64,000 nt of DNA from an uncultured Gemmatimonadales bacterium (GCA_963739455.1 CAVUAK010000001.1:1600001-1664000); one strand, 5' to 3'; positions 903 through 56,642 are shown, numbered from the stretch's first letter. Notes: generated by a model not told the origin, from the sequence alone. Numbers and translations: made by a program.

Positions 903-2408
903 ATGCAAATCGGCATCATGGCGCTGACGGGCTTGCTTGTGTCCGTCGGGTTCGCGTTGATGCTGCGCAACAACAGCACCCTCAGCATTTGGACAGATGA
1001 GGCGTACTCCCTCCACACAGCTACTCAGTCGCTCGGAAACGTTTGGAGCGAGAGTCTGGGCCTTCAGCGGCAGGGGCCCGTCTACTTTCTCTCCCTCGCC
1101 ACCTGGCTCAAGCTCGCTCCCGGTTTGTGGGGAGCTCGCCTGCTGTCGACCGTGTTTGTTGGGGGTGCGGTGCTCTTCGCTGGGCTCACGGCGCGTGACG
1201 TCATGCCAAGGGACCGTTGGTTGTACCCCCTGCTCGTCGCGCTGTGCCCATATACGCTCTGGGCCGGCTCCGAAGCCCGCGTGTACGCGATGAGCCTCTT
1301 CCTCGCGTCCCTGTCGACATACCTCCTTCTCAGGGCGCTCGCGCAGCCGCGCCCCCTCGTCTACTGGATCGGCTACGCACTCACGACCGCCTTTGGAGTC
1401 ATCGCGTTCTACCCGATGGCCCTGCTTCCCGTCGGTCAGGTGCTGGCGGCCTACGCAGTCGGTTCGCGGGAGGCGCGCCGCAGCCTGTGCATCGCCGCTG
1501 GAGGTACGATCCTGATGCTCCTGCCATGGGTGCCGATTGCCTGGTCGCAGGTGAGCCAAAGCTGGCTGCCAGAATGGAACAACCTCATCCAGCCGTTCGA
1601 TGCGCCACAGCAGCATGTCTCCATGATCGGGAGCATCGTGAATGCCGCGGGCTTCATGGCCGGCTCGGTGATGCGCTCACCGATCATCATCGATCGTGCA
1701 CCGGTGCGACTTTTTGCGATTCTCCTGGTCCTCGTCGCCGGCGGCATTGCAGTTGCCCGTGGCAAGACAGCGATGAACCCGGCTTGCCGCTTCTTCTTGC
1801 TCTGCTTCGGGATCATCGCGTCCGGCCTCATCCTGCTCATCGTGCTTCGGCCCGGCTTGATCCGGGATCGCTACGCGGTGATTCTCGTCGTGCCCACCAT
1901 GGCCGCCATCGCCAGTTGCGTCACTGCAATTCCGGCTGAACGCCTGCGCACCGTGCTGGTCGTGGCCTGGTGCGGGCTAATGGGCGTCTCGATGATCAGT
2001 TACCAGCGCAACAACCAAAGCGTGCAGGACTGGCGCGGAATCTCGACCTACATCGCCGCGAGGGGGCAGCCGCACGAGCCCATTCTCGTTCATTCCGCCG
2101 ACGGTGTGCTGCCTCTAAAGTTCGAGATGCACGGCTCTAACCCGGTGCGCGGCATCCCTGCCGAGCCCGATCTTGTGGTCTATGACCCCGGCGAGTTGCG
2201 TGTCTCCTCCGTCGCGCAGGTCGATTCCGCCTTGACTCCGCTTCTGTCGGGGCAGGGGACCATCTGGCTGGTCCTCAACCGATCGCTGACTCCCCGCTTC
2301 GGGACGGCGTATGTCGACCAGTTCAGGGTGGCGTCACTGCGGACGATCGATTCGGTAAGTGCGCCCGGGCTATCGGCGTATCACGTACAGTTACGGTCGC
2401 AGAACTAG
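903..2408 (+). CDS. GT-C fold membrane glycosyltransferase (family 39/ArnT/PMT-like)
   Basis: SIWTDEAYS, PVYFLSL, ARLLS, EARVYA, QDWRG motifs; many TM segments; ATG at 903 chosen within ORF 651..2408 (after upstream stop at 844). Confidence 0.75.
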   Translation: MQIGIMALTGLLVSVGFALMLRNNSTLSIWTDEAYSLHTATQSLGNVWSESLGLQRQGPVYFLSLATWLKLAPGLWGARLLSTVFVGGAVLFAGLTARDVMPRDRWLYPLLVALCPYTLWAGSEARVYAMSLFLASLSTYLLLRALAQPRPLVYWIGYALTTAFGVIAFYPMALLPVGQVLAAYAVGSREARRSLCIAAGGTILMLLPWVPIAWSQVSQSWLPEWNNLIQPFDAPQQHVSMIGSIVNAAGFMAGSVMRSPIIIDRAPVRLFAILLVLVAGGIAVARGKTAMNPACRFFLLCFGIIASGLILLIVLRPGLIRDRYAVILVVPTMAAIASCVTAIPAERLRTVLVVAWCGLMGVSMISYQRNNQSVQDWRGISTYIAARGQPHEPILVHSADGVLPLKFEMHGSNPVRGIPAEPDLVVYDPGELRVSSVAQVDSALTPLLSGQGTIWLVLNRSLTPRFGTAYVDQFRVASLRTIDSVSAPGLSAYHVQLRSQN

Positions 2409-3463
2409 CGGGAACTCACAGGCGGTCCGGCGGTCGAATTGGCGTTCACCAGCCACGACAAGGCACCTGCAAGCGCCCAGTCGGTGTACTTTTCATTGCC
2501 CTCCCTTGTCACATGGTCGAAGTCATCGGCAAAATCGGCGTCCGTCAGCGGCGACGTAGTTGTCATGTCGACGACCGCTGCTCCATACGGTTCCGCGATC
2601 CTCCGGACTTCGTCGGCAAACGTCGAAAGGGTCGTGCTGAGGGCGAGCGGGCTGATCGTCCCTGGCTTCCTGGGATACAGGATGATCGTCACGTCGATGC
2701 CGCGTGCCTGGAATGACGTCAGGATGTTGCGGAGCGACTGCATCTGAGTCGAGTCACCGATGCACTGGGCGCCGCGCTCCATGGCGCGCTGCCAGCTCGC
2801 ATTACGCTGGTTGAGGTCGCTGGCGACTTCGTCCGCTGGCACAGGTCGGAAGCGCTGCCTGAGCAGGGGCAGGAGCATCTGCTGGCTCCGGTTGCGCACC
2901 AACACCGATACGCGCATCAGGCGCGACCAGTGATACTGCAGGAAGTTACGATTGTACGCGTTGAGTCCGTTTTGGCGCACGTCTTCCAGAAAATCGATAG
3001 TAGTCCAGGCGCGAGCAGGCAGGTTCGGCACATATCCGCCAGCGGTGCCGGGCGCGCAGGAATCCCACCACTCTGTCAGCAGGATCGCGTGACGCACGGC
3101 ACTCTTGTCGCCGAGTTCAGGCCAGACCCGGTGATTCAGCAACCACTCGTAGCTGCTGAGCTTGCCCCATTCCAGCGGTACCGCGACGATCCGCTGCTGG
3201 CCCGCAGTTCGCTTCGCCACCTCGGCCCCGACCTGGTCGAAGGTTCGCGCATGGCTCGAGCCGATGACGAGCACAGTCGGGTTGACCTGCCGCATGTCGC
3301 TGATCGCGTCGTCGACCTCGCGCCGCGGTCGTGGGTAGGCGCTAAGGCGCGCAAGGGCGATGTCGAGGCCAGCCACTGCCACGACAGCGAACAATGCGAC
3401 GATGGCGACGTTTCGCCATGTCTTGCTGACGGGAGCTGAACCCGATTCGAGCGGGGCGCTCAC
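2405..3463 (-). CDS. SGNH-like/DltD-like extracytoplasmic acyltransferase partner of MBOAT
   Basis: N-terminal TM anchor, VLVIGSSH (block I Ser) and C-terminal DFDHV (DxxH); last gene of MBOAT-ACP-ligase cassette. Confidence 0.65.
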   Translation of the reverse strand: MSAPLESGSAPVSKTWRNVAIVALFAVVAVAGLDIALARLSAYPRPRREVDDAISDMRQVNPTVLVIGSSHARTFDQVGAEVAKRTAGQQRIVAVPLEWGKLSSYEWLLNHRVWPELGDKSAVRHAILLTEWWDSCAPGTAGGYVPNLPARAWTTIDFLEDVRQNGLNAYNRNFLQYHWSRLMRVSVLVRNRSQQMLLPLLRQRFRPVPADEVASDLNQRNASWQRAMERGAQCIGDSTQMQSLRNILTSFQARGIDVTIILYPRKPGTISPLALSTTLSTFADEVRRIAEPYGAAVVDMTTTSPLTDADFADDFDHVTREGNEKYTDWALAGALSWLVNANSTAGPPVSSR

Positions 3464-5448
3464 TTGGACTCCGCGGCGCCGAGCTGTGTCGCGACGGACA
3501 GCGACGGATGCCGTGAAATAGCCGCGAGCGAAGCAGGGTTCCTGAGTGAGCTGAGGTTCGCGGGGACCTTCCCGTTCAGCACGTCCCGTGCAGCCCGCTC
3601 ACTCACCTTGCCGCTGAACGTTTGTGGAAGGTCCGTCACCTCAGCGATGACGGCCGGCACGTGATTCACCGACAGCGTCGTGGCGAGCATCTTCTTGAGT
3701 TGCAGTGTCAGCTTCCGGTCGAGGGACTTGCCAGTGGCCATCGTAAGCAAGAGAACGAGCCGGCTCCCTCCCGGTTCACGACTGTCTATCTGCTCGACGG
3801 CGAGGGCCTCGGACACCTCCGGCACTCGCTGCAGGGCATTGTAGATCTCCGCCGGACCGATCCGGACTCCACGGATGTTGAGGACGCCGTCTGTGCGGCC
3901 GAGCACTCGCGCGGTATTCCGGGGAGTGAGGGTGATCAGGTCCCCGTGCGTCCAGACACACGGATGCTGGTCGAAGTAAGAGGCGCGCATCCGCTCCCCA
4001 CCGGGATCATTGAGAAAGCCGACCGGACGTGAGGGGAAGGGCGTGCAGCAAACGAGCTCGCCGGTGCCGACCACCATTGGACCGTCGTCAACCCAGGCGC
4101 GCACGTCGAGGCCAAGGCTGAGGCACTGACTTTCGCCGGCAAACACCGGCAACTCCGGGTTGCCCAGCACAAAGCAGCCAATGATGTCGGTTCCGCCGGA
4201 GATCGATTGCACAAGGCACCCGCCGAACGCGGCGGTGGCCCACTCATGGAGGTCGTCGCGCAAGACAGAGCCGGTGGAGAGAACGGACCGGACCCCTGAC
4301 ACGTCGCCACGTGTTCGGGGCTCGATGGACGCCTCCCGGAGCATCTGCAGGTAGGTCGGATTTGTCCCGAAGACGGTGACGCCCCGGGCAAGGGCTGTGA
4401 CCAGCAGGCTGTCAGGCTCAGGATACGTGACCGAGCCATCATAGACCACGATCTCCGCGCCCGTACCGAGACCGGAGAGCAGCCAATTCCACATCATCCA
4501 GCCGCACGTGGTCTGGTACAGCATCACGTCGCCGTACCCAAGGTCGCCGTGCAGACGGTGCTCCTTGAGGTGCTCGAGCAGGGTCCCACCCACACCGTGC
4601 ACGATGGCCTTGGGGCGCCCAGTCGTCCCGGAGCTGTAGAGCACGAAGAGTGGATGGTCGAACGGGACCCTCGGCCACTCGTGCTCGCCGTCGCCAGGCT
4701 TCGCAGCTGCACTCAGGCTCTGGATGGTGTGAGTCGGGCAACCCCCCGTTGCGGCGGCGCCATCCAGTGCAATGATCCCAGCAATGCTCGGAATATCCCG
4801 CGAGAGTCGACTGAGTACATCCGTCACGTTGCGGACGACACCGTGATGCTGGAACTGTCCATGCGCCACCAGCAGCCTGGGCTCGAACTGCCCAAAGCGC
4901 TCCCGGATCGCGTCATAGCCGAGATCTGGCGAGAGCGCGCTCCACACAGCACCGCGACCGGTCACCGCGAGGCAAGCCACCGCCGTGTCGATAGTGTTCC
5001 GCACGATAGCGGCAACATGGTCCCCAGGACCGATACCGAGCTGTTCAAGTCCCCCAGCCAGTGCAGAAACACGCGCGCGGAGCTCACCCCTCGAGATCGA
5101 GCTGGTCGCGCCCGCCTCGTTCACCTCTCGGATGGCGGGCCAGCTGTCATCACCGGGAAGCTGGCGCAGCAGGTTCTCAGTGTAGTTGAGGCGAAGCTCC
5201 GGAAAAAACCGGGCACTCGCGATCTCGTCTCCGGTGCAAACCGGGTAGATCGAGCCAATGGCGATCAACCCGCTCCAGTCCAGGAATGCCTCCCAGAACG
5301 CGCGAAAGTGCTGTATGGAGAAGGCGTGAAGGTTATGCCACTCACCGAGATCGACCCCCACCTTTGCCTGCAGGAAGTCGCGGAACTCGCCGAGGTCGGT
5401 GGCCGACTGCGCAGGTGGTTGCCATAATGGTGCCAGGGTGCTGGTCAT
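3460..5448 (-). CDS. Acetoacetate--CoA ligase family adenylate-forming enzyme
   Basis: FFPELRLNYTENLL, YSSGTTGRPKAIVH, TTCGWMMWNWL, SISGGTDI, WTHGD, LPQTFSGK; 662 aa. Confidence 0.9.
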   Translation of the reverse strand: MTSTLAPLWQPPAQSATDLGEFRDFLQAKVGVDLGEWHNLHAFSIQHFRAFWEAFLDWSGLIAIGSIYPVCTGDEIASARFFPELRLNYTENLLRQLPGDDSWPAIREVNEAGATSSISRGELRARVSALAGGLEQLGIGPGDHVAAIVRNTIDTAVACLAVTGRGAVWSALSPDLGYDAIRERFGQFEPRLLVAHGQFQHHGVVRNVTDVLSRLSRDIPSIAGIIALDGAAATGGCPTHTIQSLSAAAKPGDGEHEWPRVPFDHPLFVLYSSGTTGRPKAIVHGVGGTLLEHLKEHRLHGDLGYGDVMLYQTTCGWMMWNWLLSGLGTGAEIVVYDGSVTYPEPDSLLVTALARGVTVFGTNPTYLQMLREASIEPRTRGDVSGVRSVLSTGSVLRDDLHEWATAAFGGCLVQSISGGTDIIGCFVLGNPELPVFAGESQCLSLGLDVRAWVDDGPMVVGTGELVCCTPFPSRPVGFLNDPGGERMRASYFDQHPCVWTHGDLITLTPRNTARVLGRTDGVLNIRGVRIGPAEIYNALQRVPEVSEALAVEQIDSREPGGSRLVLLLTMATGKSLDRKLTLQLKKMLATTLSVNHVPAVIAEVTDLPQTFSGKVSERAARDVLNGKVPANLSSLRNPASLAAISRHPSLSVATQLGAAESK

Positions 5449-5708
5449 GGCGCGGGCTGGAGGCGCCGAACCTGGCCAACGATCTTCCCCAAGCTGTCGA
5501 AGTTCTCGCGCGTCAGGCTCTTTCGATCGACGGTGATGCCGTAGCGCTGCTCCAGATACACCACGAGCCGAACGAATCCAAGGCTGTCGAGAATGCCATT
5601 CTCGATGAACGAGCGCTCGTCATCGCCGATCAATGTCTCGGCGTCGCCGAAATGCACGTTGTCATCGAGCCAGTCGATGACGTCGCGGCGGATATCAGAA
5701 CTGGGCAT
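5445..5708 (-). CDS. Stand-alone acyl carrier protein (DltC-like)
   Basis: 87 aa acidic protein, GILDSLG phosphopantetheine motif and ENFDSL tail; overlaps both neighbours. Confidence 0.9.
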   Translation of the reverse strand: MPSSDIRRDVIDWLDDNVHFGDAETLIGDDERSFIENGILDSLGFVRLVVYLEQRYGITVDRKSLTRENFDSLGKIVGQVRRLQPAP

Positions 5709-7149
5709 AGATGAACGCCCCGTCGCCGATCGGCGCGAAGAGCAGCAGGAAGGCGATGAGCGCACCATACGCAAGCCCGCGTACCGGTGCGGGCAGCCGG
5801 AACAGCCGGTCACGGATGCGCGTACCGAGTGAGGATGACTGCCCGTGGTAGGCTGCCACGATCACAACGGCCAGCAGCAGGGTCTTGCTCGTCAGTACCA
5901 GCGAGTCGTTGCCACCCTGTAGGAGGCCTGGCCAGAAGCGCGCGATGTCACCCAGCGTCGCGGCGCGGAACGGCAACATGCTGGCGACGAAGAAAAACTG
6001 CGTGACGGCCCAGGCAAACATCAGGTACGGGGTACTGCGGCGCAGCGTGACCCAGCGCCGGTCGGCGCGCGACCTCCGCTTGAAAGCCTCATCCCACCAG
6101 GCATGCACGGCGAGCCCGATCCCCTGAACGAGCCCCCACAGGACGAAGGGCCAGGTGGCCCCGTGCCAGAGACCGGAGAAAAGGAACACGGCGGTGAACG
6201 CGGCCGGAATACTCTTCTTGAACCAGCCCTTCCCTGTCGTCATGGGAACGAAGAGGTACTCGAAGAGCCAGGTGCTTAGGCTGATGTGCCAGTTGCGCCA
6301 GAAGGCGAGCAGGTTCGTGGTGGCGAAGGGGAATGCAAAGTTCCGGGGCAGTTCCAGCCCCAGCAACTTGCCGGCACCAATGGCGATGGCGCTGTACCCG
6401 CCGAAGTCGCACAGTACTTGTCCGGCATAACAAGCCAGGGCAACCCAGTGAGAGATCGTGTTGAAGCGCTCGGGGTCGGCGAACACCGGATTGACCGACT
6501 GGGCGAAGATCGGGGCGAGGTAGAGTTTCGCAAAGAGCCCGAAAAGTATGTGTGTGGCACCAGATGCCCATTGTTCCGCCCGGGGGCTCCGAGGAGCGGC
6601 CAACTGTGGTAGCATGGCGCGCGCGCTGCTGATCGGACCAGCAAGGAGTTGGGGAAAGAACGATACAAAGAGGGCATAGTCGAGCAGTGACTCCGACGGA
6701 AACACCCGCTCATGGTAGACGTCGATCAGGTAGCCCAGCTTGCTCAACGTGTAGAAGGAGAGCCCGATCGGAATCGCGAGGTGCAGCAGCGGAAGCGCCG
6801 ATGGAAACCCGGCGCTCGTCAGCAGGGAGTTGAGGGACGATGCCAGGAAGGGCTCGTACTTGAGCAGTGCCAGCACGCCGACATTGACGGCGATTCCCGA
6901 CAGGAACGCTGCTTGTCGTAGACGAGGCCTGCCGGAAGAACCGCCAGCTACCATCAGCCTGGCGACGGCGAAGTCACATAGCGTGAGCGCGACAAGGAGC
7001 GGGAGGAGCCTCAGGCTCCACGAAGCGAAGAAGAGGTAACTCGCCAGCAGCAGGAGCGCATTCTGCAGCATCCGCTGGCGCGGCATGAGCCAATACAGTG
7101 CCCAGACCACCGGAAAGAAGAACGCGAACTCAATGGCGGCGAGACTCAC
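5695..7149 (-). CDS. MBOAT family O-acyltransferase (AlgI/DltB-like)
   Basis: PIGLSFYT, FFPQLLAGPI, DFGGYS, FWRNWHISLSTW, GLWHGA, C-terminal FIYAQF. Confidence 0.92.
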   Translation of the reverse strand: MSLAAIEFAFFFPVVWALYWLMPRQRMLQNALLLLASYLFFASWSLRLLPLLVALTLCDFAVARLMVAGGSSGRPRLRQAAFLSGIAVNVGVLALLKYEPFLASSLNSLLTSAGFPSALPLLHLAIPIGLSFYTLSKLGYLIDVYHERVFPSESLLDYALFVSFFPQLLAGPISSARAMLPQLAAPRSPRAEQWASGATHILFGLFAKLYLAPIFAQSVNPVFADPERFNTISHWVALACYAGQVLCDFGGYSAIAIGAGKLLGLELPRNFAFPFATTNLLAFWRNWHISLSTWLFEYLFVPMTTGKGWFKKSIPAAFTAVFLFSGLWHGATWPFVLWGLVQGIGLAVHAWWDEAFKRRSRADRRWVTLRRSTPYLMFAWAVTQFFFVASMLPFRAATLGDIARFWPGLLQGGNDSLVLTSKTLLLAVVIVAAYHGQSSSLGTRIRDRLFRLPAPVRGLAYGALIAFLLLFAPIGDGAFIYAQF

Positions 7150-7161
7150 GTCAGTCGACCC

Positions 7162-8685
7162 CTATGCAACGGACCCACCACGCATCGCGGCGAGGAAGGC
7201 GGCGCCCCGGTGCCTGAGTACAGGAAACATGGCAAGAGAATAGGCCACGGCGCCTGCAAGAATCTCGAGGGCTAATCGCGGTATTGCCGGAAAGTCGGCT
7301 GCGAGCAGCGTCCGCACCGCATATACGGCTGCTACCATGACCACGGACCCCGTGATCGCCGGGAGAAGCGAGGCGACGTACTTCACGAACGAGAGGTCGA
7401 TTTCATGGAGGACCGCCACGAGGAGTGGCCCGCTCACCACTGGATAGAAAATCAGCCAGGCAACAGCGACACCCGGGAGGCCGTACCGCGCCCCCACGGC
7501 GAAACTGCCAATCAGGAGCGCGCTTGCAAGAAGGCTGTTCTTGAGCACTGCACGGGTCTTGTTGCGGGCGATGAGTATCGACGGTAGCAGCACGAGGACC
7601 GAGCGCATCACAGCGAGCACGCACAGGATCTGCATCGGCACGACAGCTGGGCCCCACTTCGCTCCCAGGACGCCGACCAGGAGATGGTCCGCGATCATCG
7701 CCAGTCCCAGGGAGGCCGGGAATGTCACGAGACTCAAACCTTGGGTGACCAGCAACAGGTATCGGCGCATGCGCGCCGAATCATGCTTTGTTGCTGAGAA
7801 ATAGGATGGCAAGACCCGGGTGACGAGGCCTGAGATCTTGTCCAGTGGCGCTGCGGAGAACGACAGTGCAAGCGTATACGCGCCCAAGGATGCGGCACCC
7901 AGGAGCCGTCCAACGATCAATTGGTCCGCGTTGGAATACGCGAAGTAGCCCAGCCTGCTCAGTAGCACGTCCCGCCCAAACCCCAGGGCATGCCCAAGGC
8001 CCTGCCCGGTTGGTCGCCGGAACCCGATGGGTACCGCTCTGCTCAGCATGATGGTAGAGAGGAATTGAGCCATGACGCCGCCGAGCACAAGCGACCAGTA
8101 GCGAAACCCCATGAATGCAAGGGCAACCGTAATGAGGGCCTGCGTTGCCGCCTGGGCAGCCTCGATGATCGAGAGGCGCTTGAAGCCGAGGTCCCGCTGG
8201 AGCACCCCGGAGCGAACAGTCTGAAGCGACGCAAAACAGGCCGTGAGCCCGAGAACAGCAAGCACCGGGAACAGTTCGGGGTACCGGAAGAACAGGCTGA
8301 GTGGCCAGGCAAGTGCAAGAGTAAGCGCGTAGGCGCCCGCGCCAAGCAAGGCTGCCAGGCCGTTGAGCTCCTCCAATTGTGTCGTGGTCATCTGTCGAAG
8401 GTTGACCACCGCACTCCCTAACCCGAACTCGCTCAGCATCGTCATGAGCGACAGATAGACCGTCGCCATGCCGAAAATGCCGTAGTCGGCGGGGGCGAGG
8501 AGCCGAGCCGTCGCGAGCGTCGCCACCCACGAAAGCACTTGCGCGCTCCACTTCGCCGCGGCCGTCCAGGCGACCCCATGGGCAAATGAGCGATCGAGCT
8601 GACGAGCTGGTGCACCAAGAGCGTCTGTAGGAAAGGATTCTCTCAGCGCACTCTGGTGGCTGTCGCTCGCGGTCGGAATACTCAT
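7162..8685 (-). CDS. wzx: Wzx/WzxC-like polysaccharide flippase
   Basis: ARLLAPADYG, EFGLGSAVV, DQLIVGRLLG..LGAY, 12+ TM segments. Confidence 0.9.
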   Translation of the reverse strand: MSIPTASDSHQSALRESFPTDALGAPARQLDRSFAHGVAWTAAAKWSAQVLSWVATLATARLLAPADYGIFGMATVYLSLMTMLSEFGLGSAVVNLRQMTTTQLEELNGLAALLGAGAYALTLALAWPLSLFFRYPELFPVLAVLGLTACFASLQTVRSGVLQRDLGFKRLSIIEAAQAATQALITVALAFMGFRYWSLVLGGVMAQFLSTIMLSRAVPIGFRRPTGQGLGHALGFGRDVLLSRLGYFAYSNADQLIVGRLLGAASLGAYTLALSFSAAPLDKISGLVTRVLPSYFSATKHDSARMRRYLLLVTQGLSLVTFPASLGLAMIADHLLVGVLGAKWGPAVVPMQILCVLAVMRSVLVLLPSILIARNKTRAVLKNSLLASALLIGSFAVGARYGLPGVAVAWLIFYPVVSGPLLVAVLHEIDLSFVKYVASLLPAITGSVVMVAAVYAVRTLLAADFPAIPRLALEILAGAVAYSLAMFPVLRHRGAAFLAAMRGGSVA

Positions 8686-8690
8686 CAGGT

Positions 8691-10436
8691 TTAGGCGAAC
8701 GCCGTGACGGGCTCGCCAACCGCACCTAGCGCGCGCCGGACCAGTTGGGACGCGAAGCCCGACTCAGGTGGCGGCAGCGCCGCGCCTTCACTCACGATCG
8801 CGCAGCCGGTCGGGCAGGTCCCCGCGATCCGCTGCACCTCGCTGAACTGGACCCGGTTGAATGACGTCGGCGCGTAGCGCACGTTCAGGAAGCGCACCAG
8901 CTCCGCCACCTCGTTGCCGACACCGGTTTCGACCGCCCGGAACCCCGCATATACCGCCTCTACCAGCGCCGCCGACGGCGCCTGTCGCCCCCGGCCAATG
9001 CCGACATACGCGAGGCCGCTCGCCTCCACGTCCGCCGCCCGCATCAGGTTGCACGCATCCACCACCTGCTTCGCCTTCGGCGCCATCGCAGCAATCGCCT
9101 TCCACTGCTCCGCGTACACACGGTGCGGACAGCAGAGCACGATCACCTCCGCGTCGCCCACCGCCTCGGCTAGGTCACGCGTGAACACATCCGTCATGCC
9201 GAAGATGCTTCAGGTTCGCGTCCGTCGCATACACATACGGGTCATGGATCTGCACCTGTACGCCGTGTGCCCGGAGCACCTTCGCGAAGTACAGCGTCGG
9301 CGAGTTCCGCGTGTCCTCGGAGTTGCCCCGGTAGGCCGCGCCCAGCAGCGCAACACGCTTCCCCTTGAGGCTACCGAACGCGCGCTCCGCCAGCCGCAGC
9401 GTCTCTGCCGGCGACTGGTCGTTGATCCGGCGCGACTCCAGGATCAGCGACCGCGAGTTGTCCTCCCCCGCCTCGAGCGCCCGCCACCAGAGCAGCACGC
9501 CGTCCTTCGGCAGGCAGTGCCCGCCCACGCCCAGCATCGGCACCAGCAGCCCGCCGCTCGGCACCGCCTGCGGGTCGCTCGACGCCGTGTCCTCCTGCTT
9601 CGCCTTCGTGTTCACGGCATCGCGCAGGGCGAAGAAATCGATGTCCTGCGCGTCGCAGTAGCGCACGACCTCGGCCGCATACGCGATGCGCACGTCGCGG
9701 TAGGCGTTCTCCAGCGTCTTCACCACCTCGGCCGTCATGCTGTTCGTCGCGTGCAGCTCGCCCTGGGTCACGATCTTCGAGTAGAGCCGCCGGATCAGCC
9801 CCGGCGTCTCCGGGTGCAGGCCCGCGATGATCTTGTCCGACGCCGCCACACGCTCCACCAGGCGGCCCGGCATCACCCGGTTGGGGCTGTTGCCCAGCAG
9901 GATGTCCTTCCCCTCGATCAGGCCGTGCTTGGCGAAGTGATCCGTGATCACCGTCGCCATGGACGACGGCGCCAGCGTCGACTCGAACACGATCACCGGC
10001 ACGTTGCCCTGCGGGCCGCTTCTGCAGCGCCAGCGCGATGCCCGTCAGCGCCTCGAACATCGGGCCGTAGTCGGGCACAGCCCCCTTCTTGTCGGTCTGC
10101 ACGGAGATCAGGATCATGTCGGCGTCGCGACAGCGCATCGTAGCCGTGCGCCGCGCTCAGCAGCCCCGCCGCGACCGATTCCTTCACCACCCGGTCGAGG
10201 TCGGGCTCGACGCCGCCGATCGGCGACTTGCCCGCGTTGATCGCGTCCACCTTCCAGCCCGAGGTCGGCGAGTTGCGCTGCACCACGACCACCTTGGCCG
10301 GCTCCGTCGAGCCTTCCCGGATGCGGGCGTGAGCCAGCATCGCCGCCATCGGCATGCCGACGATGCCAGGGCCCACGACGGCGATCTTGCGGACGGTCCA
10401 GGCGGTGACCTTGTCGTTCTCTAGCGTGAGCGGCAT
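8691..10436 (-). CDS. UDP-sugar (UDP-Glc/GDP-Man/UDP-ManNAc family) dehydrogenase, split by about 3 indels
   Basis: Fragments 9993..10436, 9371..10138, 9175..10002, 8691..9197 carry GPGIVG, FESTLAP, AEVVKTLENAYRDV, GVGGHCLPKD, YRGNSEDTRNSP. Confidence 0.88.
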
Positions 10437-10455
10437 CGGTCTCGTCGGGTCAGGG

Positions 10456-12338
10456 TCAGTCGGCGTCGATGAACTGCCGGTGCCACAGCTCCAGGTTCAG
10501 GAGCCCCCACAGGCGACGGCCGAAGGCCGCCTCCTTGCCTAGCAACTGCTGTACCTCGGCCGGGTCGAAGATTCCCCGCTCCCGGCAGCGCTGCGACAGC
10601 AGCACGTCGTGGAAGAAGTCCCGCGCCCGGCCCTGGGCCCACAGGTGCAGCGGCACCGGGAAGCCCATCTTGTCCTTGCGCTCCAGGATCCGCGTCGGCA
10701 GCGTGTGCTGCACCGCGCGCTTGAGGATGTACTTCATCTCGCCGCCGCGGAACTTCATCGCCGGCGGCATGCTCGCCACCAGGTCCGCCATCCGGTAGTC
10801 GAGCATCGGCACCCGCGACTCGAGCGACACCGCCATGCTCACGCGGTCCTCCACCTGCAGCAGCGCCGGGAGGGTGGTCACCATGTCGAAGTGCGTCATC
10901 TTGTTGTAGTACGACGACGTCTCCGGGTGGTTGAACACCTCCTGGAACCGCTCGAACTGCGCCTCGGGCTGGTAGCCTGCCCGGAAGTCCTCGCTCAGCA
11001 GGTCCAGCGCGCCACCGCTCCGGTCGATCAGCCGGAAGTAGCGCCGGTCCATCGGCGAGAACAGCTCATCGTTCCAGAACTGCTTCAGCATCGGCACGTA
11101 CTGCTTGAGCGCCGCCAGGTTGGGCACGATCGAGCGGAGCGAGACGATGTGCTCCTGCTCTTCGTTCGTCTCGAAGATCGCGCCCTTGAGCGCCTGCTCG
11201 AGGTACGCCACCAGGTAGCGCGCGTAGCCGCCGAAGATCTCATCGCCGCCCTGGCCGCCCAGGCACACCTTCACCTGCTTCTGCGCCATCCGCGAGACGA
11301 TGTACTGCGGAAACAGGCCCGGCCCCGCCACCGGCTCGTCCATGTGGTAGACGAGCTTCGGCAGCAGGTCGACGAACTCCTGCTCGGTCGGGAAGATCTC
11401 GTGCGACTCGGCGCCGCAGGCGCGGCCACCTCGCGCGCATAGTCGAGCTCGTCGAACTCCGGCCCTTCCTCGAACGCGCCCGAGAAGGTGTGCAGCTTGC
11501 CGCCGACATGCGGGGCGGCCAGCATCGTCACCAGGCTCGAGTCCATGCCGCCGCTCAGGTAGCAGCCCACCGGCACGTCGCTGCGCATCTGCAGCCGCAC
11601 CGCGTCGGTGAGCAGCCGCCGGACCTCCTCCACGAAGTACTCCTCCGTGTGGTACGGGTCGAGCTGGAACGTCGGTTCCCAGTACTTCTCCGTTCGCACC
11701 TCGAGCGATGCCAGGTTCACCACCTGGTAGTGCCCCGGCAGCAGCTTGCGTACGCCCCGGAACAGCGTCGCATCGCCCAGCACGAACTGGAAGGTCAGGT
11801 AGTCGTGCAGCGCCTCGGTGTGCGGGGCTCGCATCGCCTCCGGATGCCGCAGCAGCGCCTTGATCTCCGAGGCGTAGCATACCTGCCCCGCGATCTCGGC
11901 GTAGTACAGCGGCTTGACCCCGAAGTGATCGCGCGCCGCCAGCACCGTGCCCCGTTCCCGGTCGTACAGCAGGAACGCGAACATGCCGTTGAGCAGCTCG
12001 ACGCAGCCCTCGCCATGCTCGGCGTAGAGCCGCAGGATCACTTCGGTGTCCGACTGCGTCCTGAACTCGTGGCCCTGTCGACGCAGCTCGTCGCGCAGTT
12101 CCACGTAGTTGTAGATCTCGCCGTTGAACACGATCGTCAGCGGCCCGCTCGTCATCGGCTGCTGGCCGGTGGCGAGGTCGATGATCGCCAGCCGCTTGTG
12201 GTGGAAGCCCACCCGGTCGTCGATCTGCTGGCCCTCGCCGTCCGGTCCGCGATGCTGGATCGTGTGCGCCATCGCGCCCAGGATCTCCGCGTCCACCGGC
12301 TGCGCCGGGCGCGTCAGGATCCCCACGAATCCGCACAT
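10456..12338 (-). CDS. asnB: Asparagine synthase (glutamine-hydrolysing)-like amidotransferase, one frameshift near 11420
   Basis: MCGF start, RGPD, FNGEIYN, LSGGMDSS, GQGGDEIFGGY, DRVSMAVSLESRVP, KMGFPVP. Confidence 0.92.
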
Positions 12339-12341
12339 GCG

Positions 12342-13314
12342 CTAGGCCGCCACGGCCGGCGCGCGGAGCGCCAGGCCCTTCCGGTCCATCAGGGCGCGCG
12401 CATGGGTGCTCATGTTCACCAGTTCGAAGTGCTCACCGAGCACCTTCAGCACCCGCTCGAAGAGCTCGATCTTCTTGCTGCTCTTCACGTCCATGCCCGG
12501 GAAGAAGGCGAGGGCCGGAGCCTCTTCGCCGCCGAGCAGGTCGAGCGGGTGAAGCAGGAACGAAGGCTCGAGTCCGGTGGCGCGGCACATGGTCACCGCC
12601 GTGCGGAGGTACGCCGCCATCGCCACTTCCGAGTAGCGCGCCAGGTAGAGCAGGTAGCTGAAGTGGAATGGCACCTTGAACACCGGCATCGTGGTCACCG
12701 GGATCTCGAGCAGCGTCTTGCCGCCATCCAGGTTCCAGTGATACGGCTTGTTCGGGCGGAACCCCTCGCTCAGTGAACCGAAGAGGTAGCTGCGCTTCTC
12801 CCGCTCTTCCTTCGACAGCTTCGCGGTCCAGAAGTAGTAGGCGCGCGCCAGCGGTCCGAGGAAGGTGGGGAAGGTCGAGGCGTCGTACAGATACCCTCGA
12901 CGCGAGAGCACGCGCAGCAGTTCCGGGCTCCAGCTGAAGCCCGGTCCGCGGAACCCGAGGGGTCGCTGCCCAGTCGCCGCCTGGATCGCCGAGCTCGGCG
13001 CCGGTGATTTCCTTCTCGAGCTGGTCCGGCGCGTACAGGTGCAGCCACGGCTCGTGCTCGTAGGAGTGGTTGCCCACCTCGTGCCCCGCCGTCACGAACG
13101 CGCGCAGCGCCGGGATGTTCTCCTCCCGCGCCGCATCAACGCCCACGATGAAGAACGTGATCTTGATGCCAAGGCGCTCGAGCGACTCGAGCACGATGGG
13201 CGAGAACGTCGGGAGGTACGTCGGGCGGCTTTCCCAGCCGGCGTCCCCGTGCGTCTTCATGTACGACCAGAGGTTGTCGACGTCGAGCGAGACGCTTGCT
13301 AGCGGACGGCTCAT
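12342..13314 (-). CDS. Polysaccharide deacetylase (CE4), frameshifted near 12960-13010
   Basis: SLDVDN, ITFFIVG, HEVGNHSYEH, GFRGPG, YLYDAS, LLHPLD. Confidence 0.85.
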
Positions 13315-14665: not shown

Positions 14666-14669
14666 GCGT

Positions 14670-19023: not shown

Positions 19024-19650
19024 ATGACCTTCAAGCTCAAGCGCCTCATTCCCACCTCGCTGCGTCGCTGGCGCGAGGTGCTGGCGACCCTCAAGCCTGA
19101 GGAGCGCCGCGTGCTCATTCGAACCGCCATTGCCGCCACGCTCCGTCCGCGTCGCCGGGACTGGCGGGAGCTCGTGCGGAACGGCAGCAATTTCGTAATG
19201 GTTTGCCACGGCAACATCATCCGGAGTCCGCTCGCCGCGGCGGCACTTGCCCGCGAGGCCGCTTCGCGCCAACGAACTGCAACCCTGTCGAGCGCCGGCC
19301 TCTTCGCCCGGCCCGGCGAACCCGCGGATCCCCGCGCCCTCGAATCAGGCAGGGCGCGCGGGCTTCCCATCGAGGCCCATCGGTCTCGCCTGCTCGGCAC
19401 ACCCCAGGTGTGGTCGGCGGACGCCATCTTCGTCATGGACCACTACAACCTCGGTCGAATCATCTCGCGCTTTCCGGAGGCAGCCGAACGGGTCTTCCTC
19501 CTGGGCGGCTGCCAGCCCGATGGGCGCATGACACTTACCGAGATCTACGACCCCGTCTCTGGTTCGCTCGCCGACGTTGAGCTTGCGCACGATCAGGCCA
19601 TCGCCGCCGTGCGCATTCTTGCCGAGGCATGGGACACCTCGCCAGCGTGA
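19024..19650 (+). CDS. Low-molecular-weight protein-tyrosine phosphatase-like (Wzb-like)
   Basis: VCHGNIIRSP P-loop, SSAG, ADAIFVMD, EIYDP. Confidence 0.8.
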   Translation: MTFKLKRLIPTSLRRWREVLATLKPEERRVLIRTAIAATLRPRRRDWRELVRNGSNFVMVCHGNIIRSPLAAAALAREAASRQRTATLSSAGLFARPGEPADPRALESGRARGLPIEAHRSRLLGTPQVWSADAIFVMDHYNLGRIISRFPEAAERVFLLGGCQPDGRMTLTEIYDPVSGSLADVELAHDQAIAAVRILAEAWDTSPA

Positions 19651-20309
19651 CGGGGAGCGGGCTGGAATCGCTCTTTCCCGCGGGCGTCGTGGTCGAGGTT
19701 GCGACCGCCGCCGATGAGGACGAGCGTCTCCTGTTTGAAGCCGAACTCGCCCTGATGGGCAGCATGATTCCAGCCCGCCGTCGTGAGTTCGCCTCGGGTC
19801 GGAACACCGCCCGCCGCGCCCTCGCCCAACTTGGCATTCCCCCCTCGCCCCTGCTTCGCCAAGGCACGGGCCGCGACATCGCCTGGCCCGCCGGTCTCAT
19901 CGGGAGCATCAGCCACACCCGCGGCCTCTGCGCCGTCGCCTGCGCCCGCATCTCAAGCCAGCTGCAGTCGCTCGGCCTCGACGTCGAACAGCCCGGCCTG
20001 CTGGGCGACGATATCGTGCCCACAGTCTGCCGCTCCGATGAGCTCCAGATGCTCGCCGCCTTTCCGCAGCCCTGGCCATCCGACTGGCCCCGCCTGCTCT
20101 TTGTCATGAAGGAGGCGGCGTACAAGGCGTGGTATCCCGTCACCCGTCGGGAAATCTCGTTTCAGGAAATGCGCGTCACCATCGATGTCGCGGAGCGGAG
20201 TTGTGTGGCCGAAGTGGATGGAAATGTCGCAGCCGGCCTGAAGATCAACGGCCGATTCGGGTGGGAAGAACATCTTGTCTATGCGGGAGCGGTACTGACG
20301 CGGCACTGA
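19629..20309 (+). CDS. 4'-phosphopantetheinyl transferase (EntD/Npt type)
   Basis: RRREFASGR, WPAGLIGSISHT, LGLDVE, KEAAYKAW. Confidence 0.92.
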   Translation: MGHLASVTGSGLESLFPAGVVVEVATAADEDERLLFEAELALMGSMIPARRREFASGRNTARRALAQLGIPPSPLLRQGTGRDIAWPAGLIGSISHTRGLCAVACARISSQLQSLGLDVEQPGLLGDDIVPTVCRSDELQMLAAFPQPWPSDWPRLLFVMKEAAYKAWYPVTRREISFQEMRVTIDVAERSCVAEVDGNVAAGLKINGRFGWEEHLVYAGAVLTRH

Positions 20310-27928: not shown

Positions 27929-27935
27929 CAGGTGC

Positions 27936-32585
<4,650 letters not shown>

Positions 32586-40574: not shown

Positions 40575-40575
40575 G

Positions 40576-52320: not shown

Positions 52321-53466
52321 GTGACAATGACCAACAGTGTAAGCGCGACAGAGACCCATCGGTTCCAGGCCGTGGACGCCATGCGCGGCCTGGCGGCACT
52401 CGCTGTCGTGTTCTATCACGTGCAGGGCGCCATGAGTCGCGGCGCGCAGCCCTGGTTCCCTGGCGCGTTGAGCTGGCTCGCCGAGCGCGGCCATTTCGGT
52501 GTCAACGTCTTCTTCGTCCTCAGCGGCTTCGTCATAGCCCGCTCCGTCCGCCACGGGTCCATGACACCGGGCTACTTCGGGCGCTTCGTGCTGCGCCGCT
52601 CGATCCGGCTCGACCCTCCATACTGGACCGCCATCGCGCTCGAGGTACTGCTCATCTACGGCGGGCTCGCCCTCTTCCCGTCGCTTGGCACCCCTGCGCC
52701 CACCTGGCCGCAGTTACTCTCTCACCTGGCGTACCTGCAGGACATCCTGGGCTACGGCCAGCTGATTCCGATCTTCTGGACTCTCTGCTATGAATTTCAG
52801 TTCTACCTGGTCCTCGTCGGCGTCCTTGTTGCCGCTCAACAGGTAGCGCGATGGACCAGCCAGCGCGTCGCCCACGGCACCATGGTGATTCTGTTTGTTG
52901 CCCTCTTCTTCGCATCCGTCGGCGCCCATCACGGCTGGCTCAAGGGTGTGCCGCATGGGCTCGCGCTCGACCGGTGGTACGAATTCTTCACCGGCGTCAT
53001 CGCCTGGTGGGTCGTATCCGGCATTCTCCCACTGGCAACGCTCTTCGCCGCCTGGGGTGTCAACGCTGTCCTTGCCCGACACACGGACTCGCTCACCGAG
53101 GGAATCCTCGTGGTCCTGGTCAGCTCCATCTGCCTGCTCAGTGCTCGCTACCCGTCGTTCGACCGCCGGTTCAAGCTGCGACCGCTCCAGTTCCTCGGGG
53201 CGATCTCCTACAGTCTGTACCTGTACCACGCCTCGATCAGCTGGCGTGTGGTGTCACTGGTGCAGCACTTCGCCGGGACGTCACTTTCGGCCGTGGTCGG
53301 CACACTGACATGGTTGGCGGCCGTCGCGGCCGCACTGGTCGCCGGATACCTGGGATGGCGACTGATCGAGGTTCCCTCGATGCGACTCGCGCGGCGTATC
53401 ACCTTGCCGGTGCGCGTCGAGCCGGTGTCGCCAGTTACGTCGCCCGGCGCAGCGCCGGCTCTGTAA
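52321..53466 (+). CDS. Acyltransferase 3 (OafA-like) family protein
   Basis: [48 protein letters not shown]. Confidence 0.92.
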
Positions 53467-54082
53467 CTGCCTGGATCGACTCGAAGCTCTCGCCTGGTGA
53501 CGCTTCCACCAGCACCAGGCCCGTGGATGTCACGTCGATGACGGCGCGCTCCGTGATGATGCGGTCCACGCAGCGCCGTCCCGTGAGCGGCAGGGAACAC
53601 TGCTCCAGGATCTTGGGCCCGCCGTCCCGGGTGCAGTGCTCCATGATCACTACCACCCGGCGCGATCCCGCCACCAGGTCCATCGCCCCGCCCATCCCCT
53701 TTACCATCTTGCCCGGGACCATCCAGTTGGCCAGGTCTCCCTCGCGGGACACCTGCAGCGCCCCCAGGATCGACAGTGGCACGTGCCCGCCCCGGATCAT
53801 CGCGAAGCTGAGTGCGCTGTCGAAGTAGCTGCAACCCGGCAATTCGCTCACCGTCTCCTTGCCCGCATTGATGAGGTCGGCATCCACCTCACTCTCCAGC
53901 GGGTAGGGCCCCACACCCAGCATCCCGTTCTCCGACTGCAGGACGACCGGAATGCCTGCCGGCACGTAGTTGGCCACCATCGTCGGCATCCCGATGCCGA
54001 GATTGACGTAATAGCCGGTGGCGGGCGTCAGGGCGCTCAGCTCCTGCGCCGCGCGGCGGGCGATCACCTCACGGACGTCCAT
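53435..54082 (-). CDS. scoB: 3-oxoacid CoA-transferase subunit B
   Basis: [16 protein letters not shown] (catalytic Glu), [22 protein letters not shown]. Confidence 0.95.
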
Positions 54083-54783
54083 TCGGCGTGGCCTCCCGGA
54101 CGGTGCGGCGCTCGATGCGCTTGGAATTCTCGCGACACACCACCACGCGCTGCACGAAGATCCCCGGCGTGTGGATCGCATCGGGGTCGAGCGCCCCTGC
54201 TGGCACCAGTTCCTCAACCTCGGCCACGGTGATACGCCCTGCCATCGCCACCAAGCGGGTTGAAGTTCCGTGCCGTCTTGCGATACACCAGGTTGCCCTC
54301 GGAGTCTCCCTTCCACGCATGCACCAGGGCGAACTCGCCGGTAATGCCACGCTCCAGGATGTATTCCCGGCCGTCGAAGCCACGCGTTTCCTTGCCCTCA
54401 GCCACTCGGGTGTTGACACCCGTCGCGGTATAGAACCCCGGTATGCCAGCCCCACCCGCGCGGAGCCGCTCCGCCAGCGTGCCCTGCGGCACCAGCTCGA
54501 CGTCGAGTGTCCCGGAGAGCATCAGCTGCTCGAATACGTCGTTCTCTCCGACATAGCTGGCCATCACCTTGCGCACCTGGTTGTTCCGCAGGAGCTGCAC
54601 CAGCCCGAAACGGGTCGTGCCGGCGTTGTTGCTGACGACGGTCAGCCCCGTACGGCCCAGGTCCCGTACCGCCTCGATGAGTTCCTCTGGAATGCCGCAA
54701 AGCCCAAAGCCACCGACCAGCAGCGTGGCACCCTCGGGAAGGTCCGCAACAGCGCTGCTGGCGTCAGGAAAGAGTTTGCTCAA
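54069..54783 (-). CDS. scoA: 3-oxoacid CoA-transferase subunit A, one frameshift near 54255
   Basis: [37 protein letters not shown], then [12 protein letters not shown] in second frame. Confidence 0.92.
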
Positions 54784-54822
54784 CGCGGAATCGCCTCGAA
54801 CGGGGAAGGCCTCAAATCTATC

Positions 54823-55797
54823 TCAGAAGCTGTGTTCGCGGCGCGGAAGCAGGGGCAGCACCGGCAGGAGCGCCAGGTGCGCCAGGGCGCTGAGGCGCCG
54901 ACCGGGCCACAGCAGCGCGCGGCCATAGAACGAGGCCGCCTTGCCGGCGTCATGCTGCCAGAAATATCTCCAACCCAGGCCGCAGTGCTCCGCGGCGATC
55001 CGGCGGCGCAGGATGGCGCGTTGCTCATCCGTCAGGCGGGCCTCCGCCATGAAGGTTAGCACGCTGCGGAGCGTGGCGTTCTGGATATGATCGCCGCTGA
55101 CATAGCTGTTCTTGCCGTGGCGCCGGACTTCAACCAGCACCTCATCCAGGAACGCAATCGGCATGCCCCCGGCGTACACGTTCAGGATCAGGTACAGGTC
55201 TTCCGCCGACCTGATGTTCGTGTTGGACCACCGTCCCTCCAGTGCCGCGCGCCGGAACACGCTCGCCTGCAGCCACCCCGGAAGGCTGGTACTTGGTGCC
55301 AGCGCCGCGAACGGATCCATCGTGATCACCCGGCCCTCGCCGCCGGCAGCCGGGCGAGTCGGGAGTTCCCTGAGCCGCGGTGCCAGGTCGAACTGCGTAC
55401 CCGGTATCGCGTGTCCGTGGTCTGTCCGGATGAAGTTCGCGAAGCAGTGCCCCACTTCGGGCTCCGACTCCAGCAGGGTGACCATGCGCTCCAGGAAAGT
55501 CGGCCGCCAGAGGTCATCGGCGTCGAGCCACGCGATCAGCTCACCCCGCGCTTCTGCGCGCCCCCGGTTGCGCGCCGACGCCGTTCCCCCGTTTTCGCCG
55601 CTGATGAGGCGCACGCGCGCATCGGTAAACCGCCCCACCACCTCTCGCGTGTTGTCCGTCGAGCCATCGTCCACCACCACCACTTCGAGATCGCGAAATG
55701 TCTGCGCCAGGATGCTCTCCAGCGCATCTGCGATGTACTGCCCGTAGTTGTAGGTCGGGATGATGACGCTGACGAGCGGTTGCCGCGCAGTAGTCAC
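54823..55797 (-). CDS. GT2 glycosyltransferase
   Basis: VSVIIPTYN, VVDDGSTD, ARNRG, LDADD, ED. Confidence 0.92.
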   Translation of the reverse strand: MTTARQPLVSVIIPTYNYGQYIADALESILAQTFRDLEVVVVDDGSTDNTREVVGRFTDARVRLISGENGGTASARNRGRAEARGELIAWLDADDLWRPTFLERMVTLLESEPEVGHCFANFIRTDHGHAIPGTQFDLAPRLRELPTRPAAGGEGRVITMDPFAALAPSTSLPGWLQASVFRRAALEGRWSNTNIRSAEDLYLILNVYAGGMPIAFLDEVLVEVRRHGKNSYVSGDHIQNATLRSVLTFMAEARLTDEQRAILRRRIAAEHCGLGWRYFWQHDAGKAASFYGRALLWPGRRLSALAHLALLPVLPLLPRREHSF

Positions 55798-56642
55798 AGG
55801 CGAGTTCCAGGACCTTCGATAGCGGTCGTGATGCTGTTGCTAGCGGCTGCCAGGCGGACCGGATCGATGCCGGTGGCTCCGGGGAAGGCCTGTACCAGTG
55901 CCTCGGTGCTGACATTGCCCGGTGCGCCCGGCGCATACGGGCACCCGCCGATGCCACCAGCGCTGCTGTCAAACACCCGTACGCCCATTTCCGCGGCGGC
56001 CAGCACGTTCCTCACCGCCTGCCCAAAGGTATCGTGGCAGTGCAGCGCGATCTGCTCGACCGGTATTTCCAGCAGGACCGACTCCAGCAGCGCGCGCACC
56101 AGGTCTGGGGTGGCTCGGCCGATCGTGTCGCCCAGTGAGATCTCGTGGCAACCGAGGCCGATGAGGGCCGTCGCCACCTCACGCACTCGTTCCGGGGCCA
56201 CCGGTCCCTCAAAGGGGCACACGAACGCCATCGATACATACCCGCGCACCGGAACCCGGGAAGCGGCAATCACGGGCGCGAAGCGTTCCAGTGTATCGGC
56301 AATCGAGGCGTTGGTGTTCTGCCGCGAGAACGTCTCACTCGCCGCCGTGAAAACCGCCACCACATCCACCCGCGCCGCAACTGCCCGCTCCAGTCCCTGA
56401 AGATTTGGCACGAGTGCATGGTACCGGACCCCATCCTGCCGTTGGATGAGCCGGAACACCTCTTCTGCGTCGGCTAGCTGCGGTACCCACTTGGGCGACA
56501 CGAAGCTCGAGACCTCGATATCGGTCAGCCCGGTGCGCGACAGGGCGTCCACAAACGCCACTTTCTCTGCAGTCGGCACGAACCCACTGATGCTCTGCAG
56601 CCCGTCTCTGGGACCGACCTCTACTATCCGCACTTTCTTCAC
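55794..56642 (-). CDS. hmgL: Hydroxymethylglutaryl-CoA lyase
   Basis: EVGPRDGLQ, SFVSPKWVPQ, ISLGDTIG, HCHDT, GGCPYAPGA, GNV. Confidence 0.95.
   Translation of the reverse strand: MKKVRIVEVGPRDGLQSISGFVPTAEKVAFVDALSRTGLTDIEVSSFVSPKWVPQLADAEEVFRLIQRQDGVRYHALVPNLQGLERAVAARVDVVAVFTAASETFSRQNTNASIADTLERFAPVIAASRVPVRGYVSMAFVCPFEGPVAPERVREVATALIGLGCHEISLGDTIGRATPDLVRALLESVLLEIPVEQIALHCHDTFGQAVRNVLAAAEMGVRVFDSSAGGIGGCPYAPGAPGNVSTEALVQAFPGATGIDPVRLAAASNSITTAIEGPGTRL

Follow-up and report, generated by a model that had tools for sequence, protein, structure and literature searches.

What do four overlapping genes for an MBOAT membrane acyltransferase, a stand-alone carrier protein (ACP), an adenylating enzyme derived from acetoacetyl-CoA synthetase (AACS), hereafter the ligase, and a membrane-anchored SGNH protein do together in an uncultured Gemmatimonadales bacterium? 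The DNA analysed, referred to as the window, is a stretch of 64,000 nucleotides (GCA_963739455.1 CAVUAK010000001.1:1600001-1664000), and positions are counted from its first letter. The four-gene cassette (Table 1) is real, conserved and uncharacterised. The reading that we favour, at somewhat better than an even prospect, is a Dlt-like, carrier-fed relay that would move a C4 acyl group onto an extracytoplasmic glycan in Gram-negative cells; its chemistry is predicted from observed genes, motifs, conservation, clade structure and gene fusions. An earlier note on this DNA had described four overlapping genes 12 nt behind a Wzx flippase gene, and the gap, the coordinates and the overlaps were all found to be as claimed: MBOAT and ACP genes overlap by 14 nt, ACP and ligase genes by 4 nt (ATGA) and ligase and SGNH genes by 4 nt (GTGA). 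All four frames are intact, while several upstream window genes are frameshifted.

Conservation was assessed from two seeds, with genes in the resulting loci called by a codon-trained caller. The SGNH protein alone, searched on contigs representing one genome per species, gave 72 relatives (37-49% identity, every E below 1e-58) and 50 loci; with the ACP as query, metagenome contigs yielded 132 relatives; the 80 best were retained, and a few of their loci repeat genomes of the SGNH-seeded set. All four genes stand together in 36 of the 50 SGNH-seeded loci, across about seven phyla, and since these loci were found through SGNH alone, the co-occurrence is far beyond chance. The order SGNH-MBOAT-ACP-ligase on one strand was seen in 34 of the 50 (in two of them the contig stops within the ligase), compared with which the SGNH-last order of the window cassette is unusual; two further loci hold a complete but rearranged cassette. 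Among the others, seven end too early, two are broken and one has SGNH-MBOAT only. From the ACP side, 58 loci have 500 nt or more of flank, and 50 of these have the ligase immediately downstream; MBOAT lies directly upstream in 60 of 73, and SGNH is present in 29 of the 35 with enough flank. The earlier note had proposed a gene-neighbourhood search as the check on whether the cassette recurs elsewhere, and by both seeds it does. An ACP profile search returned 774 proteins at E of 1e-8 or below, the best 120 of which were inspected. Within the window's own phylum the ACP was found in 5 of 401 genomes searched, so the cassette is rare and patchy there. By record titles, hosts of complete cassettes belong to Myxococcota/Deltaproteobacteria, Gemmatimonadota, Pseudomonadota, Planctomycetota, Spirochaetota, Acidobacteriota and Entotheonella. 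Nearly all are metagenome-assembled genomes; the one cultured host, Povalibacter uvarum DSM 26723, also carries two housekeeping AACS genes.

Three loci showed variant arrangements. Locus L176 (5472-16250) holds two SGNH-MBOAT pairs, one followed by ACP and a glycosyltransferase of GT-C fold and the other by the ligase. In L022 (5015-7974) a second module, consisting of an adenylation enzyme of non-ribosomal peptide synthetase (NRPS) type, a carrier and an unknown protein of 349 aa, lies directly upstream of the cassette. In L020 (12287-15498) an exosortase-associated ligase (TIGR03098, slightly below cut-off), a carrier and a pyridoxal phosphate-dependent decarboxylase lie beside a lone SGNH gene of the cassette family.

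The ligase scores above both curated AACS cut-offs (TIGR01217 and NF002937), and its best relative of solved structure is the AACS of S. lividans (4wd1). It is the only AACS-level match in its own genome, which is 84% complete, and the cassette ligase is likewise the sole AACS found in most cassette genomes. These facts, together with an MBOAT of the CoA-using PatA type, would suit an ordinary acetoacetate-CoA ligase that feeds a PatA-like MBOAT or catabolism, the ACP being loaded otherwise or carried as a passenger, but this explanation is considered improbable on the following evidence. When AACS models were searched against the 37 genomes of cassette loci, scores fell into two classes, 721-932 bits for housekeeping enzymes and 543-678 bits for full-length cassette ligases, and both classes occur together in nine of the 37 genomes. 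No AACS match was found in 144 of 301 own-phylum genomes searched, so the enzyme is not obligatory in the phylum. Comparison of the ligase with housekeeping AACS in a tree, which the earlier note had also suggested, was made with 62 sequences (excluded were two ligases interrupted by stop codons and 15 of the 30 housekeeping sequences from the window's own phylum; supports are bipartition values). The 33 ACP-adjacent ligases and the orphan L074 form one clade with a support of 0.999, to which L066 is sister (1.0). By sequence, the cassette ligase is not a housekeeping AACS.

The separation extends to the CoA site. Positions D197, K204 and R589, in window numbering, align with D187, R194 and R584 of Salmonella Acs; a role in CoA-nucleotide binding for the D187-R194 loop is taken in part from Acs R191 (PMC10455477). 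The window ligase carries G197, V204 and A589 at these positions. Housekeeping enzymes keep D/E at 197 in 39 of 40, K at 204 in 40 of 40 and R at 589 in 38 of 40, compared with 1, 0 and 6 of the 33 cassette ligases; a basic residue at both 204 and 589 occurs in 38 of 40 and 5 of 33, respectively, and at neither in 23 of the 33. An independent set of 21 ligases from ACP-seeded loci has no D/E at 197 and no K/R at 204 (0/21 each). According to PMC10455477, Acs R584 contacts the 3'-phosphate of CoA. The A8 motif xRGxR is found in 32 of 33 cassette ligases and in none of 40 housekeeping enzymes, and is shared with six of seven NRPS adenylation domains in the same loci. The ligase is thus AACS by score, acid pocket and catalytic Lys and departs from that family in its CoA-nucleotide residues.

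Relatives fused to carriers bear directly on what the ligase loads. The cassette ligase profile was searched against 1.84 billion representative proteins, and the 42 best matches (at least 702 bits) were taken as the top set. Thirty-six of these exceed 700 aa, and 35 of the 36 bear a fused PP-binding domain, accompanied by a third domain that is a thioesterase in 26, a hexapeptide acyltransferase in four and a GNAT domain in two, with none named in three. The 31 long top matches placed in a tree all fall within the cassette clade (63 members, 0.983), and a quick IQ-TREE analysis of a 43-sequence subset gave an SH-aLRT of 95.5 for the grouping of cassette ligases with fusions. Further down the ranking, six long proteins lack a carrier; the tree included five of the six, and these fell with housekeeping AACS. 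Among 30 fused ligases counted, K204 is present in one, D/E197 in none and the AACS pocket in 29. One fusion, P0207, joins a hexapeptide domain, a carrier of the cassette ACP family (40% identity) and a ligase in a single chain, and is the only top match of the ACP profile among the fusions; P0207 and the other fusions are the strongest evidence that this ligase clade would load carriers. The fused forms (P0196-P0236) make up a large family of AACS-like ligase and carrier that source databases name 'acetoacetyl-CoA synthetase', and, as a guess, those with hexapeptide or GNAT domains could add N-acyl groups to amino-sugar nucleotides. Locus L091 was checked as a further ligase-carrier fusion and is not one.

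Structure prediction of the ligase-ACP complex gave a score of 0.37, compared with 0.00 for the best control, with contact agreement of at least 83% and partner pLDDT of at least 81. The mark that this pair passes was reached by 116 of the 157 solved pairs and by 2 of the 215 mismatched ones; at 0.60 or below, passing scores came from just 18 of the 157 and from both of those mismatches. The prediction lends weak support to carrier loading; since complexes of adenylation domains with carriers are solved, the pass may reflect likeness to them. Because the ligase belongs to a separate clade, has lost CoA-nucleotide residues and has relatives fused to carriers, it very likely transfers its acid to the arm of the ACP rather than to CoA, and the earlier note's proposal that it charges the ACP appears likely to be right.

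The acid itself is likely to be of the AACS type, with four carbons. Residues M318, M319, T392 and G418, which correspond to V310, T311, V386 and W414 of Acs, and catalytic Lys614 are invariant in all 33 cassette ligases, and the four pocket residues occur in 35, 39, 40 and 40 of 40 housekeeping AACS; positions V310 and T311 presumably line the pocket. The GWMMWNW and SISGGTD motifs are retained. The pocket therefore matches that of AACS, and its sequence does not separate acetoacetate from 3-hydroxybutyrate. Acetoacetate has about an even chance of being the substrate, and 3-hydroxybutyrate and any other acid are each doubtful. The earlier note's premise is that some AACS also activate 3-hydroxybutyrate; the one figure found for such activity, in PMC11584562, is 15% of Vmax for a Leishmania enzyme. 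A different short acid (branched C4-C5, 3-amino- or 3-hydroxy-3-methyl-), or acetoacetyl-ACP that is reduced, dehydrated or aminated before export, is rather unlikely. It draws on a glycine at the Acs W414 position, which PMC10455477 describes as common to medium-chain ligases in general, on clade-specific changes by the active site (V395, Q/H414, G424, T500), and on a MaoC-SDR fusion near L143 and a class III aminotransferase beside L087. Set against it are the pocket and two motifs, which are those of housekeeping AACS, and the neighbourhoods, in which such tailoring enzymes are not conserved and genes related to acetoacetate recur.

Those neighbours were counted in 56 of 111 loci, the long loci, which are non-redundant and have 5 kb or more of flank. 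Six of the 56, and the short locus L163 (scoAB), have them: HMG-CoA lyase (3-hydroxy-3-methylglutaryl-CoA lyase) and scoAB directly before SGNH in L023 and L142, scoB in L135, a short-chain fatty acid transporter in L136, thiolases in L144, and a thiolase, an HMG-CoA-synthase-like gene and scoAB flanking the cassette on either side in L187. At housekeeping AACS genes the count was 0 of 47 loci, but 39 of these 47 have flanks of only about 1.5 kb. The HMG-CoA lyase and 3-oxoacid CoA-transferase A/B (ScoAB) genes of the window are the only copies in their genome. A ligase making acetoacetyl-CoA would duplicate ScoAB, whereas with a ligase that loads the ACP, ScoAB and the lyase could supply free acetoacetate. 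In the same part of the window, at 52321-56642, an AT3 acyltransferase gene adjoins scoB-scoA, a GT2 gene and the HMG-CoA lyase gene; in the window's phylum, scoB matches are confined to 19 of 301 genomes. Glycans might receive C4 acyl groups here by a second, CoA-fed route.

The carrier and membrane components carry the residues that such a relay would use. Ser42 of the ACP, the phosphopantetheine site, is invariant in 31 of 31 sequences, and the protein has a family-specific N-terminal motif, WLDDxxHFG; the closest solved relatives are type II peptidyl carriers, including PltL, and DltC. The Sfp-type phosphopantetheinyl transferase (PPTase) of the window is the sole match to two PPTase markers in its genome, and in 4 of the 56 long loci the cassette has an AcpS-type gene nearby. 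In the MBOAT, His329 aligns with DltB His336, and the chain ends in FIYAQF (479-484), a hexapeptide of the FxYxxF acyl-shuttle type with its tyrosine at 481. Eighty full-length MBOAT homologue open reading frames from the loci, duplicates included, end in FxYxxF, 79 of the 80 have WHG, and six end in FIYANF, the hexapeptide of N. gonorrhoeae PatA. The SGNH protein has a single N-terminal hydrophobic helix (residues 19-37 by hydropathy), Ser70 in GSSH and Asp314 and His317 in DFDH; S69, S70, H71, D314, D316 and H317 are invariant in 73 of 73 sequences. Its structure model (pLDDT 92) matched SGNH hydrolases in Foldseek, with DltD 7dxm as a weak match at rank 4 (E 1.2e-3, TM 0.39, 14% identity), and no DltD model matched it in family scans of the window proteins; the earlier description of this protein as DltD-like therefore stands for the fold and fails for the family.

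PMC12148441 describes how PatA acetylates the tyrosine in the FxYxxF motif fused to it and how the SGNH protein PatB then receives the group, and how DltX supplies this motif in Dlt. Because the shuttle motif of the cassette sits C-terminally in the MBOAT itself, DltX is not needed, and the membrane half reads as a relay of PatA/PatB type. Both features tested, namely a catalytic His with a C-terminal FxYxxF, and a membrane-anchored SGNH protein with Ser and Asp-x-x-His, place the cassette by sequence in the MBOAT-SGNH acyl-Tyr relay class.

The proposed relay would proceed in four steps. First, judging from the motif, the PPTase would prime Ser42 of the ACP. Second, the ligase would use ATP to adenylate a C4 acid, most likely acetoacetate and next 3-hydroxybutyrate, and move the acyl group to the ACP arm. 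Third, acyl-ACP would dock at the cytoplasmic face of the MBOAT, where, by homology to PatA and DltB/DltX, His329 very probably passes the acyl group to Tyr481, with FIYAQF standing in for DltX. Fourth, the periplasm-facing SGNH protein would take the acyl group on Ser70 and probably esterifies an extracytoplasmic glycan, the candidate acceptor being a lipid-linked repeat unit, exopolysaccharide or a glycan built by a GT-C enzyme.

A glycan is our best guess for the acceptor, and probably the right one. Genes for exosortase, glycosyltransferases, Wzy, Wzx, Wzc, deacetylases and amino-sugar enzymes make the window a large surface-glycan region. A glycan marker occurs in 28 of the 56 long loci, two or more in 21, and a Wzx marker near the cassette in five. 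A frequent neighbour that lacks a Pfam match has the GT-C fold, and when this GT-C protein, present in 15 loci, is counted, 32 of the 56 have a glycan gene. The genes are often coupled to the cassette: GT-C follows directly after the ligase in some loci, and a UDP-GlcNAc 2-epimerase gene follows ACP in six short loci (three of six scanned) and stands between ACP and ligase in L192 and L193. The same carrier-fed relay might instead serve a membrane lipid, peptidoglycan, a protein of the periplasm or whatever a neighbouring NRPS/polyketide synthase (PKS) makes; this is less likely, at a low but appreciable probability. A hybrid NRPS/PKS lies directly after the ligase in L036, L037, L044, L047 and L170, and PatAB, according to PMC12148441, acts on peptidoglycan and needs no nearby glycan genes; on the other side, the characterised MBOAT-SGNH pairs that this source lists all acylate envelope polymers. 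The window has its own hybrid NRPS/PKS (21581-32585), spread over many frames and comprising formyltransferase, adenylation domain, luciferase-like monooxygenase, ketosynthase, acyltransferase, ketoreductase, dehydratase, carrier and thioesterase; a tRNA-Val called by ARAGORN at 31684-31772 falls within its NRPS reading frame and is probably false.

Several observations weigh against the relay as proposed, and they touch each of its parts. At the level of the cassette, L045, an SGNH-seeded locus, lacks the ligase within 8 kb, and SGNH stands alone in 3 of the 50 SGNH-seeded loci (L020, L038, L042), apart from the other cassette genes; two of these three genomes carry MBOAT-ACP-ligase elsewhere and one carries the ligase alone. 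Ligases L066 and L074 lie apart from other cassette genes, and L066, which is basal, follows scoA-scoB and has no ACP, a point that also favours an ordinary AACS. Residue losses do not exclude CoA use, because, as PMC10455477 reports, an enzyme without the 3'-phosphate arginine has a Km for CoA only some 6-8-fold higher, and family members differ in their CoA sites; basic residues at both sites persist in the 5 of 33 cassette ligases counted above. Five genomes of the same genus were tested, and every one has HMG-CoA lyase and scoB, three of the five being without the ACP; a cassette-specific supply by HMG-CoA lyase and ScoAB was not upheld in them; given these genomes and L066, the acetoacetate-related neighbours may be inherited catabolic context. 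No conserved reductase was found among cassette neighbours, which leaves 3-hydroxybutyrate without a local source. Finally, 24 of the 56 long loci, mostly Myxococcota/Deltaproteobacteria and set among signalling genes, have no detected glycan gene, as a non-glycan acceptor would allow, and the glycan count is rough in both directions because its markers were drawn from the same loci and only part of the reading frames was annotated.

Table 1. Features of the window, with positions counted from its first letter
Feature	Position	Strand	Evidence and remarks
MBOAT membrane acyltransferase, PatA/AlgI type, 484 aa	5695..7149	-	PF03062 E 8e-23
Stand-alone carrier protein (ACP), 87 aa, Ser42 in LDSL	5445..5708	-	PF00550 over cut-off
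AACS-derived adenylating enzyme (ligase), 662 aa	3460..5448	-	AMP-binding family match; TIGR01217 606 (cut-off 520.9); NF002937 661 (cut-off 639)
Membrane-anchored SGNH protein, 352 aa	2405..3463	-	Weak GDSL match, PF13472 E 1e-4, below cut-off
Wzx-type flippase	7162..8685	-	Polysacc_synt_3 E 3e-60; PF13440/PF01943; context, outside the conserved core
Sfp-type phosphopantetheinyl transferase	19629..20309	+	PF17837/PF01648; candidate ACP primer; also adjoins NRPS/PKS
Acetoacetate-related block, including GT2	53435..56642	-	Possible acetoacetate supply, in the same glycan region
HMG-CoA lyase	55794-56642	-	Model over cut-off (set NF004283, TIGR02429, TIGR02428)
3-oxoacid CoA-transferase A (frameshifted)	54093-54783	-	Model over cut-off
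3-oxoacid CoA-transferase B	53435-54082	-	Model over cut-off

GC at third codon positions is 0.73-0.79 in the Wzx and cassette genes, below the 0.90 and 0.92 of two upstream genes, which suggests that Wzx and the cassette are a separately acquired block. A promoter and terminator scan rose no higher than chance (1 versus 1.2 and 4 versus 4.4), and a search for RNA runs returned none. The ACP start codon falls within the codons of the MBOAT shuttle motif (5695-5708), as do those of the ACPs in L034 and L049 (MPSS). Frameshifted genes at 8691-16453 and 40217-41967 include a UDP-sugar dehydrogenase split three ways, AsnB split in two, deacetylases and a second, fragmented MBOAT, and the frameshifts are probably long-read assembly errors. 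Outside the window, a third MBOAT (G000:C1:1569561-1570619, 33% identity) lies near another Wzx gene.

Named cassette hosts are diderm lineages, which makes teichoic acid an unlikely acceptor. In comparison with Dlt (DltA/C/B/X/D), as described in PMC12148441 and PMC11035591, the cassette has in common an adenylating loader, a stand-alone carrier, the MBOAT His, the FxYxxF Tyr shuttle and a membrane-anchored SGNH protein. The differences are that its loader descends from acetoacetyl-CoA synthetase whereas DltA is NRPS-like, that its shuttle is fused to the MBOAT whereas Dlt uses a separate DltX, and that its predicted cargo is a C4 acid whereas Dlt carries out D-alanylation of teichoic acids. 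DltA models are absent from the 25 best of 78 matches for the ligase, the best being AACS (661 and 606 bits); the ACP scores below the cut-offs of the DltC models NF003464 (40.3/68) and TIGR01688 (28.1/52.35), and the MBOAT below that of the DltB model TIGR04091 (146/375). Assignment to Dlt itself was rejected, as neither a DltA ligase, a DltC carrier, DltB with DltX nor a DltD SGNH protein was recovered. Where the earlier note had seen the parts list of DltB-DltC-DltA-DltD, the roles of MBOAT, carrier, loader and SGNH protein hold up, and orthology to Dlt does not, every Dlt model falling under its cut-off.

Other known systems resemble the cassette in part. Type II carrier-loading modules (PltF/PltL type) also pair a stand-alone adenylation enzyme with a stand-alone carrier, but their loaders, like those of Vibrio AlmE/AlmF, activate amino acids and are not known to feed an MBOAT-SGNH pair. 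With the S. lividans AACS (4wd1) the ligase shares the fold, the ATP motifs, the catalytic Lys (K614) and the acid pocket; it differs in its lower score, in lacking equivalents of D187, R194 and R584, in its NRPS-like A8 arginine, and in lying beside or fused to a carrier, a few orphans excepted. Like the cassette, PatA/PatB, AlgI/AlgJ/AlgX, WssH and CcsH/I combine an SGNH protein with an MBOAT whose fused C-terminal motif is FxYxxF, but these O-acetyltransferases use acetyl-CoA, whereas the cassette couples a carrier and a dedicated loader to its MBOAT. PMC12148441 (2025) states that outside Dlt no carrier protein takes part in MBOAT/SGNH pathways, because they use acyl-CoA.

A literature search, thin on subscription journals, found no description of the cassette or of a carrier-loading AACS, and none of an O-acetoacetyl (beta-keto) ester on a bacterial glycan. 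Tentatively, the cassette may install O-acetoacetyl esters, and within the AACS family a large clade may be mis-annotated, its members being acetoacetate:carrier-protein ligases that serve MBOAT-SGNH pairs and, in fused forms, hexapeptide, GNAT or thioesterase domains. Acetoacetyl esters react with free amines. For this reason, and with polysaccharide deacetylases present in 14 of the 56 long loci, cross-linking or chelation by the acetoacetyl group in the matrix is conceivable, as a speculation of very low probability.

The cassette would represent a four-gene counter-example to the carrier-free rule stated in PMC12148441, combining the donor logic of Dlt with the shuttle architecture of PatA. 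It predicts a new surface modification and is a candidate route to C4 O-acyl groups, an example of which would be the 3-hydroxybutanoyl esters of rhizobial exopolysaccharide (PMC5748678). For the family, the curated AACS model admits a clade that probably does not make the CoA ester, which affects the metabolic annotation of many environmental genomes.

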